IMG/VR virus record: IMGVR_UViG_3300047462_000030
Strand: one strand, 5' to 3'
Length of the DNA: 24,378 nt
DNA from: an uncultured virus (IMG/VR IMGVR_UViG_3300047462_000030)
Lineage: Duplodnaviria; Heunggongvirae; Uroviricota; Caudoviricetes
The notes under the pieces are model-generated. The model made no database searches. It saw nothing but the letters and a program-made list of their open reading frames with translations, and was not told where the DNA came from. The first letter of the stretch is position 1. The number at the start of each line of letters is the position of its first letter. The position numbers and the translations under genes were made by a program. This document shows, piece by piece, positions 2,898 to 16,157 of this stretch.

Positions 2898-2994
2898 AAC
2901 GTACAGACGTTAAAAATAACGCGGACTATAATTCACTCATGCCACGTACAATACTATATAGTATAACCCAATGACAATCAATGATACAATCATG

Positions 2995-3156
2995 TTACAC
3001 CTTTACAATCTTAAAGGTTGTTACTGTGACACACTCACCTGGCTTCATGTGTGCAACTCTATCTGGTATCCATACACTAGCAAACATATTGTATAGCCAA
3101 TGTAAACTTATAGGATTGTCTGTTATCTTATGCTTACCATCATACACTAAGTACAT
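2995..3156 (-). CDS. Hypothetical protein (53 aa, absent from the ORF track)
   Basis: TAATG coupling with the upstream gene and GAGGAG RBS; MYLVYDGKHKITDNPISLHWLYNMF...KIVKV. Confidence 0.65.
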   Translation of the reverse strand: MYLVYDGKHKITDNPISLHWLYNMFASVWIPDRVAHMKPGECVTVTTFKIVKV

Positions 3157-5043: not shown

Positions 5044-5229
5044 TTAGCAATCTCCAATCAACTCTAATCGTTCTAGTATTGCATTAGATATATGTTGTTC
5101 TATTTCTTTCTTATCCTCACGCAACACTCGGAGTAACTCTTGTTCTTCTGGAGTTAGTTCTCCACCTTGTTCTTGTATCTTATCTATAGCTTTACATACT
5201 TGATTCAACTTGTATTGACAGTTATGCAT
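5044..5229 (-). CDS. Hypothetical coiled-coil protein
   Basis: Start moved to MHNCQYK, which follows an AAGGAGG RBS; 61 aa. Confidence 0.7.
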   Translation of the reverse strand: MHNCQYKLNQVCKAIDKIQEQGGELTPEEQELLRVLREDKKEIEQHISNAILERLELIGDC

Positions 5230-5230
5230 A

Positions 5231-5407
5231 TCAACCTCCTTCATCCATACTTGTGATACCATCATCACACATCTCATCAGTACACTTGTGACAGTTATGC
5301 CATATACCTTCTGACTCTATATCGTCCTGAGCATCTTGTCTGGTATCATATGGAGCATCTATTAATATAGACTCTTTAACTTTACCTTTGATTATATTGT
5401 ATCTCAT
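5231..5407 (-). CDS. Hypothetical protein (58 aa, absent from the ORF track), directly downstream of hammerhead 2
   Basis: MRYNIIKGKVKESILIDAPY...CHKC...EGG; its RBS GAGGAGG lies inside the ribozyme core. Confidence 0.7.
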   Translation of the reverse strand: MRYNIIKGKVKESILIDAPYDTRQDAQDDIESEGIWHNCHKCTDEMCDDGITSMDEGG

Positions 5408-5487
5408 ATAATGGCCTCCTCAATACGTGCTATACACGTAGACATACCCATGAGCCTAGGGGAAGACCCATGGATATGTTTCGGCCT
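5407..5487 (-). ncRNA. Type II hammerhead ribozyme with variant core (UUGAGGA)
   Basis: Minus strand reads GGCC-GAAA-stem III (CAUAUCCAUGGGUCU/AGGCUCAUGGGUAUG)-UC|-stem I (UACGUG UAUAG CACGUA)-UUGAGGA-GGCC. Predicted cut after GUC, between 5441 and 5440. Confidence 0.8.
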
Positions 5488-5500
5488 AACAGCGTGGGGA

Positions 5501-5830
5501 TTACGCTGCCTCAGTATCAAATGCTTTGATCTCAGGGATCACAATATCATCGGCAACAACAACCTTGCTTGTCTTATCAACAGCAAGGATTGCTTTGTGA
5601 GCTTCAATGAATGTAGCAATGTCTTTACTAGCATTCAATAACTTAGCCCATTGTTTACCATAGAGTGTGACAGGGAAACGACCTAAGCCATATACAGATA
5701 CAGCTCCCTTAGCTGATACCTTAAAGCTTAGGCTAGGCTCTTTACGTTTGGGATTCTTAAGTTCTGCATTCTCTTGCTGAAGTCTTAAGAGTTCTGCTTT
5801 CATTGCTAATAGTTCTTGTTCGAAGTTCAT
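5501..5830 (-). CDS. Conserved-type hypothetical protein (coiled coil plus KVSxKGAVSVYGLGRFPVTLY domain), possibly nucleic-acid binding
   Basis: Start moved to MNFEQELL, which follows an AAGGAG RBS. I recall the motif from a widespread small bacterial/phage family of unknown function; not searched. Confidence 0.75.
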   Translation of the reverse strand: MNFEQELLAMKAELLRLQQENAELKNPKRKEPSLSFKVSAKGAVSVYGLGRFPVTLYGKQWAKLLNASKDIATFIEAHKAILAVDKTSKVVVADDIVIPEIKAFDTEAA

Positions 5831-6002
5831 GTGTATCTCCTTTGTAACGTATGCTATAGCATACATGGTTAATAATCATCTTAATAACATATACATAACT
5901 GTATGTATATGATGTAACATATTAATAACATTAACATAACTCATAACACACCCATTGCTTTAAACAATAGAACAGATATAAAGTAACCACACACTAGGTA
6001 CA

Positions 6003-6219: not shown

Positions 6220-6351
6220 TTAAAGATAAGCTATTGTATACTCAAGCTTGCATTGCATTAGAACATTGACAAGCTTAAGTACATCGCTAAAGTATTCATA
6301 CTGCTCATGCTTAATAACACTACCATTGATATAAGTTACTTGATACTTCAT
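6220..6351 (-). CDS. Hypothetical protein (43 aa), first gene after hammerhead 1
   Basis: ATG at 6351 follows AAAGGAG. The longer ORF-track version would run through the ribozyme. Confidence 0.65.
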   Translation of the reverse strand: MKYQVTYINGSVIKHEQYEYFSDVLKLVNVLMQCKLEYTIAYL

Positions 6352-6359
6352 AACGTTCT

Positions 6360-6464
6360 CCTTTGTTAGACTCATCAGTACGCGCTTCACACGTAGACAA
6401 TCCAATAGGTTAGCTGATGTTCAACCGGCTTGCTATAGGATTGTTTCGTCTTTTAAACAAAAGG
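6360..6464 (-). ncRNA. Type II hammerhead ribozyme, canonical core
   Basis: Minus strand reads AGAC-GAAA-stem III (CAAUCC...GGAUUG)-UC|-stem I (UACGUG UGAAG CGCGUA)-CUGAUGA-GUCU. All conserved core nucleotides are present. Predicted cut between 6396 and 6395. Confidence 0.92.
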
Positions 6465-12169: not shown

Positions 12170-12583
12170 ATGTCTGATTTGAATATTAAAGAAGCTAAAG
12201 AATATAAAAAACTTGAGACCTTCTCTAATGCGCAAACTAATACAATCATTGAGCTATCTCGTAAGTTAAAGACTGCTCAAGATGAGATCACACATCTTAA
12301 AAAGCTATTAGAAGGTTCTGTTCCTCTTATTCAATCTCAATCTGATAAGATTATATCTAATGCTGGTGATCAAGAATATATTTGTCGTACTGAAATCAAT
12401 AAGTTACGCGGTATATCTAATGAAAGAGAACTTACACTAGAAGAAACCAAGAAACTTGATATTTTTTCTAAAATATTAAAAGACTTAGCCACTTCACCAA
12501 AAGGTTTAGATCAACCTGCTAAAAAAGCAACTGATGAAGAACTACTTGCCGCAATTGAATCAGAATCGAATACTAAACAATGA
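12170..12583 (+). CDS. Putative terminase small subunit
   Basis: 137 aa, helical, ATGA-coupled directly upstream of the large terminase; called by position only. Confidence 0.5.
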   Translation: MSDLNIKEAKEYKKLETFSNAQTNTIIELSRKLKTAQDEITHLKKLLEGSVPLIQSQSDKIISNAGDQEYICRTEINKLRGISNERELTLEETKKLDIFSKILKDLATSPKGLDQPAKKATDEELLAAIESESNTKQ

Positions 12584-14025
12584 ATTTAACTAAGGCAGAA
12601 GCTATAGCAGAATTCTGGAATAGAGGTAACTTAAAATATAAGTGTCATCCTATTCAAAAGGAAATGTACAACATTTTCTATGAAGCTCCTAAGCATTCTA
12701 CCCTTGTATGGCTACTTGCTCGTCAATCTGGTAAAAGTTATCTTTTAGGTATTCTTGCATTAGAACAAGCATTTAGACATGCTAATTCCATTATTAAAAT
12801 GGTAACAGATACTAAGCTACATCTTAAGTCAATCTTTGAAAAAATCTTTGAAGACCTTCTTGCAGATTGCCCAGAAAAGCTTAAACCAGATTTCAAAGAA
12901 AAAACATATACCTACTATTTCACTAATGGATCTCAAATCCAATTAGCCGGTACTGATAATAAGCACTATGAAAAACTTCGAGGACAAAAGGCTCATTTAG
13001 TTTTAATTGATGAAGCAGGTTTTTGTAACGATTTTTCTGATGTTGTTGATAGCGTTCTCTTTCCTACTACCACTCATACTGGTGGTAAGATCGTAATGGC
13101 CTCAACTCCTCCAGAACAATTAGACCATGATTTCTTTAAGTATATAGAAGTTGCTGAGAATGAAACATTTCTAACAAAGAAAACAATTCACGATAACCCG
13201 CTTCTTGATAAACCTCAAATTGAACAAATCATAAAGAAGATGGGTGGGATTAACTCAGAACGCTTTAGAAGAGAGTATCTTTGTGAAGTTGTTAAAGATC
13301 CTAATATGTCTGTTATTCCTGAGTTTGATGATGACCTTATCAAACAAATTGTAAAGGAATGGCCAACTCCTCCCCATTATGATTGTTATGAAGCTATGGA
13401 TCTTGGTGGAGTAGATTTAACTGTTTGCCTATTTGGTTATTATGATTTTAGAGCAGATAAGATTATAATTCAAGATGAACTTATTATGGACTTTTCTGAG
13501 CAAAATAATACAATAGCAAAGCTTACAGAAAATATTCAAAACAAAGAAAAAGAACTTTGGACAAGTCCTATGACGTTAGAAGTTAAGAAACCTTATCTTC
13601 GCGTTAGTGATATTGATTATATGGTAACTGGCGAAATTCTAAAATATAGCAATTACCAAATGAACTTTCAAGCTACAAAAAAAGATGATAACAATTCAGC
13701 TATCAATGACTTACGTCAGCTATTAGCTTCTAAAAAGATTATAATCCATCCTCGTTGTGTTAATTTAATAAGACATTTAAAAAACGTAAGATGGGCCAGT
13801 AAAACAAATAAACTTAAGTTCGCAAGAAGTCCAGATAACGGACATTACGATGCAGTGGACGCATTAAAGTATTTCGTTAGGTCTGTCATATTTACCAGGA
13901 ACCCATATCCTTCACATTATGATTTTAAGATGAAAGATCTATTTGTGGTTGATCCTGTTAGGTTTGAAAATAAACAAATTGATGTTTACCGTCAAATTTT
14001 TAATGTAAAAAGGAAAAGAACATAA
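12580..14025 (+). CDS. terL: Terminase large subunit
   Basis: Walker A ARQSGKS, LRG, Walker B LVLIDEAG, motif III ASTP, F.REY.CE, nuclease acidic motifs MDLG and HYDAVDALKY. Confidence 0.95.
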   Translation: MNLTKAEAIAEFWNRGNLKYKCHPIQKEMYNIFYEAPKHSTLVWLLARQSGKSYLLGILALEQAFRHANSIIKMVTDTKLHLKSIFEKIFEDLLADCPEKLKPDFKEKTYTYYFTNGSQIQLAGTDNKHYEKLRGQKAHLVLIDEAGFCNDFSDVVDSVLFPTTTHTGGKIVMASTPPEQLDHDFFKYIEVAENETFLTKKTIHDNPLLDKPQIEQIIKKMGGINSERFRREYLCEVVKDPNMSVIPEFDDDLIKQIVKEWPTPPHYDCYEAMDLGGVDLTVCLFGYYDFRADKIIIQDELIMDFSEQNNTIAKLTENIQNKEKELWTSPMTLEVKKPYLRVSDIDYMVTGEILKYSNYQMNFQATKKDDNNSAINDLRQLLASKKIIIHPRCVNLIRHLKNVRWASKTNKLKFARSPDNGHYDAVDALKYFVRSVIFTRNPYPSHYDFKMKDLFVVDPVRFENKQIDVYRQIFNVKRKRT

Positions 14026-16157
14026 TGGATTATATCAACGGTGGTGGTAATGACATTTATTTCGCAGCTAGAGAGCCAGAAAAGCTTGCTAGCGACGCTT
14101 TAAATAAAGCCCAAAGCTTCTTTAATCTATTACGAGCCAACTCCTACTTAGAAAAACTTCAACGTATGTGGAGAGCTTATCATGGAGCTTATGAGAATGA
14201 CTTAGGATTTGGTCATAGAGTAAATTTTTCTGGTGAACAAGGCGAATTAGTACAACTTCCTGTCAATCACTTTAGAAACCTTGCCCGACATATCTTGGTT
14301 ATGATTACTTCTAACCGTCCTATAATGGATGCTAGAGCTATCAATACCGATTATAAATCACTTGCTCAAGCTAACCTTGCTAACGGTATTTTAGATTATT
14401 ATATGCGAGAAAAAGGACTAGAAGACGTTCTAACTCGCGCTGTTGAATATGCAATTGTCCTTGGATCAGGTTTTATTAAACTTGCCTGGAACTCAATGGG
14501 TGGTAATCTCTATGATGCTGACCCAGAAACTGGTGAATTTACTTACGAAGGTGAGCTAGAATTCACAAATCTTTCTCCATTTGACGTTGTAGTTGATGGA
14601 ACAAAAGAAACTTGGGATAATGATTGGATTTTGACAAGAACATTTCAAAATAGATTCAATCTTATGGCTAAATATCCCGAATTAGCCGATAAAATCAAAG
14701 GAATTCCTCCTAAAAATCAATCTGCTGTATATCGTTTAGCTGTTTGGTCTAATGATGACACTGATGATATCCCTGTTTATGAATTTTACCATAAACAAAC
14801 TGAAGCACTTCCTGAAGGTCGATACCTTTTATTTCTAGATGCTGATATTATTCTATTAGATGCCAAGATGCCTTATAGAATGATCCCAATTTTCCGCATT
14901 GTTGCTGGTGAAATCCTTGGAACTCCTTATGGTTACTCGGATATGTTTGATATTTTTCCGATTCAAGAGTCAATTAACTCTCTTTATAGTACAATTATGA
15001 CCAACCAAAACGCATTTGGTGTTCAAAACTTGTATGTTCCTCGTGGTGCTGACATTGCTGTTAATCAACTTGAAGGTGCAATGAACATTATTGAGGGTAA
15101 TATGAAGCCAGAACCTCTCAATTTGACTCAAACACCTGCAGAAGTATTCAAATTTTTAGAAATGTTGGTGCAAGCATCAGAAACTTTATCTGGTGTTAAC
15201 TCAGTTGCTCGTGGTAATCCTGAAGCTTCTCTTAAATCTGGTACAGCTTTGGCCCTTGTTCAATCAATGGCTTTACAGTTTATCTCAGGTTTACAACAAT
15301 CTTACGTTAAACTTATTGAATCTATTGGAACTGCCATTATTGGTATTCTAAAAGACTTCTCAATGACTCCTAAGCTTATTACATTGGTTGGTAAAAACAA
15401 TAAACCATTGTTAAAAGAATTTACTGGAGACCAAGTATCTGAAATTAATAGAGTTGTTGTAGATATGGGTAATGCTTTATCAAGAACAATTGCTGGTCGT
15501 GTTCAAATGGCCGAACAATTGCTTCAAATGAAGCTACTTACAAACCCTCAACAATATTTCCAAGTGCTAAATACTGGTCGATTAGATTCAATGTATGAAG
15601 CCGAAATGGATGATCTACTTCTTATTAAACGAGAAAATGAAAAACTCTCTGAAGGTGTTAATCCTCCTGTATCTCCTCTAGATAAACACAGTATGCACAT
15701 TCAAGAGCACAGAGCAGTTCTTGATGATCCTGATTTGAGAAGTAATGATCAACTCAAAACTGTTGTAATGGCTCATATTCAAAGTCATTTAGATGATCTT
15801 CGACGTGTTGACCCAGCTCTTTTAAATTTAATTGGGGAAACTCCTCTTCCTCCTGCTAATCCTGCTCCACAAGGAAGCCCTCCCGGTGGAACTCCTCCTA
15901 ATCCTCCTGGACCCCCTGGTGGACCTCCTAGACCTGGTATGCCAGCTCCTGGACAAGGACAATCAGGTGCCGCTGGTGCAGAAGCTCAAGGCAACATGTT
16001 ACAAAATCCCCAACTAGGACCTATCAATCCTGGTGAAACATTATCAAATGGTGCTAGCCCAATGGCTATGCCAAATATTCCTAAGCCGCCTGGTGTTTTC
16101 AAAAATCTTCCAGTAATGGCAAATCAAATGGCTCCGCCTATTGCGGGAAGGAAATAA
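14025..16157 (+). CDS. Portal protein
   Basis: 710 aa directly after terL; GSGFIK, SPFDVVVD, SGV....G....SGTA portal-like motifs; Pro/Gly-rich C-terminal tail. Confidence 0.85.
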   Translation: MDYINGGGNDIYFAAREPEKLASDALNKAQSFFNLLRANSYLEKLQRMWRAYHGAYENDLGFGHRVNFSGEQGELVQLPVNHFRNLARHILVMITSNRPIMDARAINTDYKSLAQANLANGILDYYMREKGLEDVLTRAVEYAIVLGSGFIKLAWNSMGGNLYDADPETGEFTYEGELEFTNLSPFDVVVDGTKETWDNDWILTRTFQNRFNLMAKYPELADKIKGIPPKNQSAVYRLAVWSNDDTDDIPVYEFYHKQTEALPEGRYLLFLDADIILLDAKMPYRMIPIFRIVAGEILGTPYGYSDMFDIFPIQESINSLYSTIMTNQNAFGVQNLYVPRGADIAVNQLEGAMNIIEGNMKPEPLNLTQTPAEVFKFLEMLVQASETLSGVNSVARGNPEASLKSGTALALVQSMALQFISGLQQSYVKLIESIGTAIIGILKDFSMTPKLITLVGKNNKPLLKEFTGDQVSEINRVVVDMGNALSRTIAGRVQMAEQLLQMKLLTNPQQYFQVLNTGRLDSMYEAEMDDLLLIKRENEKLSEGVNPPVSPLDKHSMHIQEHRAVLDDPDLRSNDQLKTVVMAHIQSHLDDLRRVDPALLNLIGETPLPPANPAPQGSPPGGTPPNPPGPPGGPPRPGMPAPGQGQSGAAGAEAQGNMLQNPQLGPINPGETLSNGASPMAMPNIPKPPGVFKNLPVMANQMAPPIAGRK

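Follow-up and report, generated by a model that had tools for sequence, protein, structure and literature searches.

RiboJ-type insulators are synthetic hammerhead ribozymes whose cut leaves a 5′ hairpin followed by the ribosome site. In other engineered designs, i.e., aptazyme riboswitches that mask the Shine–Dalgarno (SD) sequence (PMC12192606) and ribozymes that overlap the SD or the coding sequence (PMC10187678), the ribozyme fold ties up the ribosome site. The natural elements closest to the one described here are the type II hammerheads reported by Perreault et al. in 2011 (PMC3088659; Rfam family RF02276), which have stems I and III closed and stem II open, carry the GAAA and the GUC cleavage triplet, and occupy intergenic positions in phage operons. 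That paper also describes prophage genes flanked by two hammerheads, and states that most type II hammerheads make their tertiary contact through a pseudoknot between loop I and the 3′ tail. Among natural core variants, it records covariation to U3–A8 as well as the saltern HHphage of haloviruses HF1/HF2 (core as in PMC7151607), which carries U3 together with an insertion and lies 13 nt upstream of a start in an early operon. Slower phage variants were speculated by Perreault et al. to be conditionally active, and in vivo cleavage is known for the type II hammerheads of Desulfovibrio vulgaris (PMC8782182).

The window analysed here, i.e., the whole stretch of 24,378 nucleotides, is phage DNA, with genes for the terminase large subunit (12580–14025), a portal protein (14025–16157) and an endolysin. 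No close DNA relative of the window was found in the phage collection, nor was any exact 20-mer of it in the viral contigs, and the relatives of its terminase include one close contig, which is short. Bases 1 to about 6400 hold a dense block of small genes oriented leftward, and a type II hammerhead, HH-1, occupies 5487–5413 of the minus strand between two small early genes of this uncultured phage (Table 1). HH-1 shares the permutation, the GAAA, the GUC triplet and the intergenic phage-operon position of the hammerheads of Perreault et al., and is a further member of a known ribozyme class in a known context. It is unlike those of PMC3088659 in having U3 for C3 and in that the core itself is the ribosome site. 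The U at position 3 is shared with the HF1/HF2 HHphage; however, HH-1 keeps G8, giving a U–G wobble, and has no 2a/2b insertion, whereas the published natural U3 cases (PMC3088659, PMC7151607) carry either U3–A8 or an insertion. As in the synthetic SD devices, the ribozyme fold of HH-1 ties up the ribosome site; those devices are engineered, mask the site in an extended stem and have a measured effect, whereas HH-1 is natural, holds the site in its catalytic core and is described from sequence. In the literature searched, the hammerheads that mask or overlap an SD were all engineered, and no natural one with a Shine–Dalgarno sequence as its core was found.

Table 1. Features of the HH-1 region and of the second hammerhead, in window coordinates
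Feature	Position	Strand	Basis
Upstream gene, 121 codons, stop UAA 5503–5501, ends 14 nt before stem II	5501–5866	−	ORF
Unpaired, conserved A immediately 5′ of stem II	5487	−	A in 97/97 non-redundant relatives (among the matches listed); aligns to model position 1
Stem II, 5′ strand GGCC	5486–5483	−	sequence, fold, model R1
Core G12 A13 A14 (GAA)	5482–5480	−	sequence, model R1
Stem III hairpin, 16 bp, 6-nt loop, opens with the A15.1 (5479)–U16.1 (5442) pair	5479–5442	−	fold
C17, last base of the GUC triplet; predicted cut between 5441 and 5440	5441	−	hammerhead consensus position
Stem I hairpin, 6 bp: UACGUG 5440–5435, loop UAUAG 5434–5430, CACGUA 5429–5424	5440–5424	−	fold, model R1
Core strand U3 U4 G5 A6 G7 G8 A9 (UUGAGGA); U3 (5423) replaces consensus C3	5423–5417	−	sequence, model R1
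Putative Shine–Dalgarno GAGGAGG: G5–A9 plus the first two G of stem II	5421–5415	−	sequence; family statistics
Stem II, 3′ strand GGCC	5416–5413	−	sequence, fold, model R1
Tail A-UUAUA-UG after stem II; UUAUA 5411–5407; AUG 5407–5405		−	sequence
Predicted A/U hairpin, 7 bp, AUUAUAU/AUAUAAU, covers A and U of the start codon	5391–5412	−	prediction
58-codon gene, start AUG 5407–5405	5231–5407	−	ORF and homologues
HH-2, paralogous type II hammerhead, canonical CUGAUGA core, stem II AGAC/GUCU	6362–6452	−	model R1

In the minimum-energy fold of 5500–5395, stems I, II and III meet in exactly the hammerhead three-way junction (−37 kcal/mol, z −2.85), and the alignment to a covariance model of its relatives, R1, spans all 59 positions. 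The G12-A13-A14 strand, the A15.1–U16.1 pair and a position 17 other than G are all present, and the core strand fits C3-U4-G5-A6-N7-G8-A9 at six of seven positions, position 3 being U. The preliminary description had read this core as UUGAGGA in place of CUGANGA, which is right for the minus strand, and the fold and R1 confirm that the element is a hammerhead. In the fold of a 141-nt segment, an 8-bp hairpin (5488–5510, minus strand) abuts the 5′ side of HH-1 and holds the stop codon of the upstream gene in its loop. The pair 5504–5494 in this hairpin is G–C here and C–G in contigs of two other metagenomes, i.e., one compensatory double change, which is also synonymous in the last codon of the upstream gene. 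A single contig came from each of two RNA-library runs, and the cleavage site of HH-1 is neither spanned by these contigs nor at an end of them. The one from run X14 (214 nt, low depth) covers the upstream gene (5478–5688), stops inside HH-1 37 nt before the cleavage site, and carries a 3-nt insertion at 5553; a lone contig of such depth does not amount to evidence of transcription or cleavage. Elsewhere in the window, a gap between small genes (2933–3101, minus strand) gave a weak match to the Rfam RT-3 RNA (19.4 bits, E 0.92, threshold 40.5 bits).

Relatives of HH-1 were gathered by pattern scans of viral contigs, keeping the matches with pairing stems, and R1 was built from 70 hammerheads of other phages with the window left out. 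In the window, R1 finds HH-1 with 50.1 bits (E 7.6e-13; 5487–5407) and a second copy, HH-2, with 52 bits (E 2.1e-13; 6452–6362), the third-ranked match having 11.3 bits. HH-1 shows every trait of the R1 subclass: stem II has 4 bp and is preceded by an A, stem I has 6 bp and is closed by a U-N-N-N-G loop, and the R1 score is significant. Covariation of the stems is strong in the family as a whole, where 99.8% of stem cells are paired vs. 68% in shuffles, a comparison that is partly circular in that the sequences were preselected for pairing. Among the matches listed, 70 of 72 relatives have a stem II of exactly 4 bp, while the 6-bp stem I and the U-N-N-N-G loop served as the selection pattern that yielded 97 non-redundant sequences. 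Of these 97, among the matches listed, 71 begin their tail with A and 78 have A in the middle of loop I (U-N-A-N-G; loci L056–L302). The invariant A 5′ of stem II, together with the conserved loop bases, suggests a different tertiary contact, which would be non-Watson–Crick and undescribed.

The Rfam model RF02276 gave no match to HH-1 at its gathering threshold of 37 bits or at E values up to 10. When run on 12 loci of relatives, the same model gave 12 matches with 24.9–38.3 bits, of which one alone passes 37, and for none of the six loci with G at core position N7 (L225, L307, L032, L038, L309 and L306) did it give a match at E up to 1. Since RF02276 is also weak or silent on the relatives, the miss of HH-1 is a trait of the subclass and not of U3. 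In the RF02276 consensus, stem II has 2 bp and loop I is larger and forms a pseudoknot, in contrast to the 4-bp stem II and 5-nt loop I of HH-1. Hammerheads with N7=G and an embedded SD would thus escape standard Rfam-based annotation.

The preliminary description had proposed GAGGAGG, 7 nt before the AUG at 5407, as a Shine–Dalgarno sequence. The exact sequence and the 7-nt spacer are as described, and the family provides a view of the core through N7, its only free position. A sample of viral hammerheads unbiased at N7 was obtained by a scan with N7 and stem II left free, which gave 72 non-redundant hammerheads among the matches listed; their N7 is U (38), C (23) or A (11), and never G. From A9 to the first plausible start, the median distance in this sample is 24 nt (72 hammerheads among the matches listed), and a separate SD-like tetramer is carried by 51 of the 62 listed matches whose start lies more than 10 nt from A9. 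Scans with N7=G gave, among the matches listed, 29 non-redundant hammerheads, 24 of which have a start within 10 nt of A9 (20 ATG and 4 GTG; median 7 nt), a spacing that places GAGGAG 4–9 nt before the start. The corresponding count in the unbiased sample is 9 of 72 among the matches listed, several of them doubtful TTG or GTG starts. The odds ratio for a near start, N7=G vs. unbiased, is 33.6 (p 2.4e-11, among the matches listed), where the starts are predicted and some N7=G hammerheads share a contig or lineage, so that not all are independent. The same arrangement was seen in bacterial genome contigs, where six of eight pattern matches are N7=G hammerheads with an ATG 3–5 nt past stem II in five and 9 nt past it in the sixth. 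The SD-embedded group, as proposed here, comprises hammerheads with N7=G in which a genuine gene starts 4–10 nt past A9; HH-1 belongs to it, with G7 at 5419 and the ATG of the 58-codon gene 9 nt from A9.

N7 is G just where a gene starts adjacent to the hammerhead, which argues that the core is used as a Shine–Dalgarno sequence. N7=G is absent from the 72 ordinary members among the matches listed and near-always beside a start, so the overlap of SD and core is selected rather than incidental. The SD proposal is thereby borne out, and the assignment of GAGGAGG in the core and stem II as the putative ribosome site of the 58-codon gene is supported by sequence and family statistics. A selected overlap shows use of the core as an SD, not regulation.

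The other genes of the leftward block have ordinary GGAG-type sites 6–10 nt before their starts. The protein encoded by the 58-codon gene has two homologues besides itself, to which the search assigned 88% and 68% identity (79% and 71% in a later alignment), both of which share its N-terminus MRY; the AUG at 5407 is thus backed as the start. No relatives of this 58-aa protein were found among the viral contigs. Its sequence carries conserved H-x-C-H-K-C and M-C-D-D-G motifs, and the product of the next gene (5044–5229, minus strand), which starts with the ATG at 5229 behind its own AGGAGG, begins M-H-N-C-Q-Y-K. Judged by these sequences, the two products may be small cysteine-rich paralogues. 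Two viral contigs contain relatives of the 121-aa protein of the upstream gene (51–52% identity), and no hammerhead was found downstream of them.

The reading that we regard as rather probable is that HH-1 would cut the transcript, that its core and stem II would form the ribosome site, and that the hammerhead fold and 30S binding would exclude each other. HH-1 would most likely cut a polycistronic transcript after C5441, which would leave an upstream product with the 16-bp stem III hairpin at its end and a downstream product with a 5′-hydroxyl and the stem I hairpin at its start. After the cut, the four pairs of stem II alone would hold the upstream fragment, and its quick departure would free the ribosome site. 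Because the fold and the 30S subunit both need G5–A9 and the first two bases of stem II, their mutual exclusion follows logically. By prediction, opening the SD–AUG region in the uncleaved RNA costs about 7.1 kcal/mol, and stem II alone as a duplex is worth −5.9 kcal/mol. The 3′ product is predicted to keep the AUG within the A/U hairpin and part of the SD in pairs, so that the predicted gain from cleavage is modest. A ribosome might also open uncleaved HH-1 through the weak 4-bp stem II, which would make cleavage irrelevant to translation.

These energies bear on a possible, though on balance unlikely, alternative in which HH-1 would cut rapidly and constitutively as ordinary processing, the overlap with the ribosome site would save space, no switch or timer would exist, and U3 would be near-neutral or slightly harmful drift. 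The modest predicted benefit of cleavage for access to the SD and AUG is what such passive processing would lead one to expect, and a hammerhead directly ahead of a ribosome site is a common layout in the subclass, as the median of 24 nt among the matches listed indicates. Gene-flanking hammerheads in prophages have been published as well (PMC3088659), and U3 is not enriched in the SD-embedded class. However, the absence of N7=G from the 72 ordinary members among the matches listed, and its near-constant association with an adjacent start, argue against a merely passive overlap. A stronger form of the preferred reading, in which HH-1 would cut the transcript and free its ribosome site, holds that SD-embedded N7=G hammerheads are natural ribozyme-gated translation starts, with the gene translated only after cleavage and release of the fragment and with core variants such as U3 setting the delay; we consider this form doubtful and put it forward tentatively. 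If true, such a gated start would be a natural counterpart of the synthetic hammerheads that mask a ribosome site.

Changes at C3 lower hammerhead activity in classical mutagenesis. Among the matches listed, position 3 is C in 71 of the 72 unbiased and 27 of the 29 N7=G relatives, with U3 in 3 of 101; the SD-embedded class shows no significant excess of U3 (2/29 vs. 1/72 among the matches listed). The near-invariance of C3 indicates that U3 is disfavoured, and it may, on this sequence record, cripple catalysis. A sequencing error, which the preliminary description had raised as a way in which its reading of U3 could fail, is ruled out by contigs from two other peat metagenomes, runs X5 and X6 (95–99% alike), which cover 5241–5551 and 5376–5526 and show no difference anywhere in 5405–5487, U3 at 5423 included. 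A metagenome scan restricted to U3 with the same stem II returned eight matches, all of them well-formed hammerheads from at least four sequence lineages, seven with an ATG 2–5 nt after stem II and the eighth on a contig that ends before the start. One U3 lineage, which includes the viral locus L032, keeps U3 across different flanking contexts. U3 is thus rare, genuine and recurrent. No figures for the cleavage rate of C3U or U3–G8 cores were found in the literature searched. In the preferred reading, U3 is a tolerated natural variant that would probably slow cleavage; the one observation in favour of a timer role is that such cores persist.

The same observations bear on whether HH-1 could be a dead relic, in which U3 would abolish useful cleavage and the element would be kept for its ribosome site and stabilising hairpins. 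C3 is near-invariant in the relatives, and Perreault et al. (PMC3088659) report that most core changes strongly cut activity and that some natural core variants are inactive, all of which would fit such a loss. However, the other core positions, the GAAA, the A15.1–U16.1 pair, the GUC and the three stems are all intact in HH-1, and U3 hammerheads with intact stems occur in at least five further lineages, one of them with varied flanks. There are also no substitutions across 83 nt in two other samples, which is weak evidence at about 2% divergence. We thus consider a relic improbable.

The preliminary description had further proposed that loop I pairs with the tail to form a pseudoknot onto the start codon. 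The complementarity is exactly as described, in that UUAUA, the final A of which doubles as the first base of the AUG, can form four A–U pairs and one G–U pair with the loop UAUAG; as a pseudoknot, the pairing is at chance level. Of all the 12-nt windows in this AT-rich phage, 11% can pair with UAUAG over at least 5 bp, as can 5 of 19 other start regions, and when loops and tails of different relatives are combined, 5–11% of the pairs reach 5 bp. Loop–tail helices of at least 4 bp occur in 15% of the relatives vs. 19.5% of mismatched controls, the N7=G hammerheads giving 31% vs. 27%. No covariation of loop I with the first ten tail positions was found in 97 relatives, all observed-minus-expected values lying within 0.13. 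The bare loop I–tail duplex has a predicted energy of +0.4 kcal/mol, and the predicted 7-bp A/U hairpin, in which the tail pairs with 5397–5391, competes with the pseudoknot for the tail. In addition, a pseudoknot would need all five loop nucleotides with no linker and would probably be sterically strained.

These results weigh on the model as originally put together, in which the loop I–tail pseudoknot would stabilise active HH-1 and hide the start codon while U3 would delay translation. The 5-bp complementarity does exist, and a loop I/3′-tail pseudoknot has been published for many type II hammerheads (PMC3088659). Because Perreault et al. describe the same contact, the idea of the pseudoknot is not new. 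At HH-1, however, a match at chance level, not enriched over mismatched controls and lacking covariation in 97 relatives, together with an unfavourable duplex, a competing hairpin and the presumed strain of a helix with no linker, makes this combined model very improbable.

HH-2, the second copy, has a stem I almost identical to that of HH-1. Its tail AACAAAGGAGAACGUU precedes an ATG at 6351, where a separate AAGGAG is present; this ATG, behind AAGGAG, is the true start of the first gene of the leftward block, for which the mechanical ORF list gives a TTG at 6405. HH-1 and HH-2 bracket a three-gene block, an arrangement of the kind described for prophage genes by Perreault et al. in 2011 (PMC3088659). 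At HH-2, the upstream CCUUUUGUU can pair with AACAAAGG in the tail over 8 bp, covering part of the ribosome site. As a general mask of ribosome sites, a helix joining the 5′ flank to the 3′ tail was rejected, since such helices reach at least 6 bp in 21% of the subclass vs. 29% of controls, and the 8-bp pairing at HH-2 may be due to chance. Hammerheads of this family also occur in dense arrays, with at least nine within about 4.6 kb of one viral contig (L114–L116) and at least six within about 4.6 kb of a second (L059–L062). In one copy in L114, the 5′ flank is complementary to the tail, AGGAGAGGCU, over 10 bp.

Relative to what was found in print, the new elements are the core-embedded ribosome site with its N7=G signature and the recurrence of U3–G8 cores. 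The N7=G signature provides a simple rule for finding SD-embedded hammerheads, and the compact SD-in-core layout recurs in other phages. The recurrent U3–G8 cores are natural material on how much weakening of the core phages tolerate or exploit. The SD-embedded subclass makes one role of the hammerheads of phage operons testable, i.e., the coupling of RNA cleavage to the start of translation.
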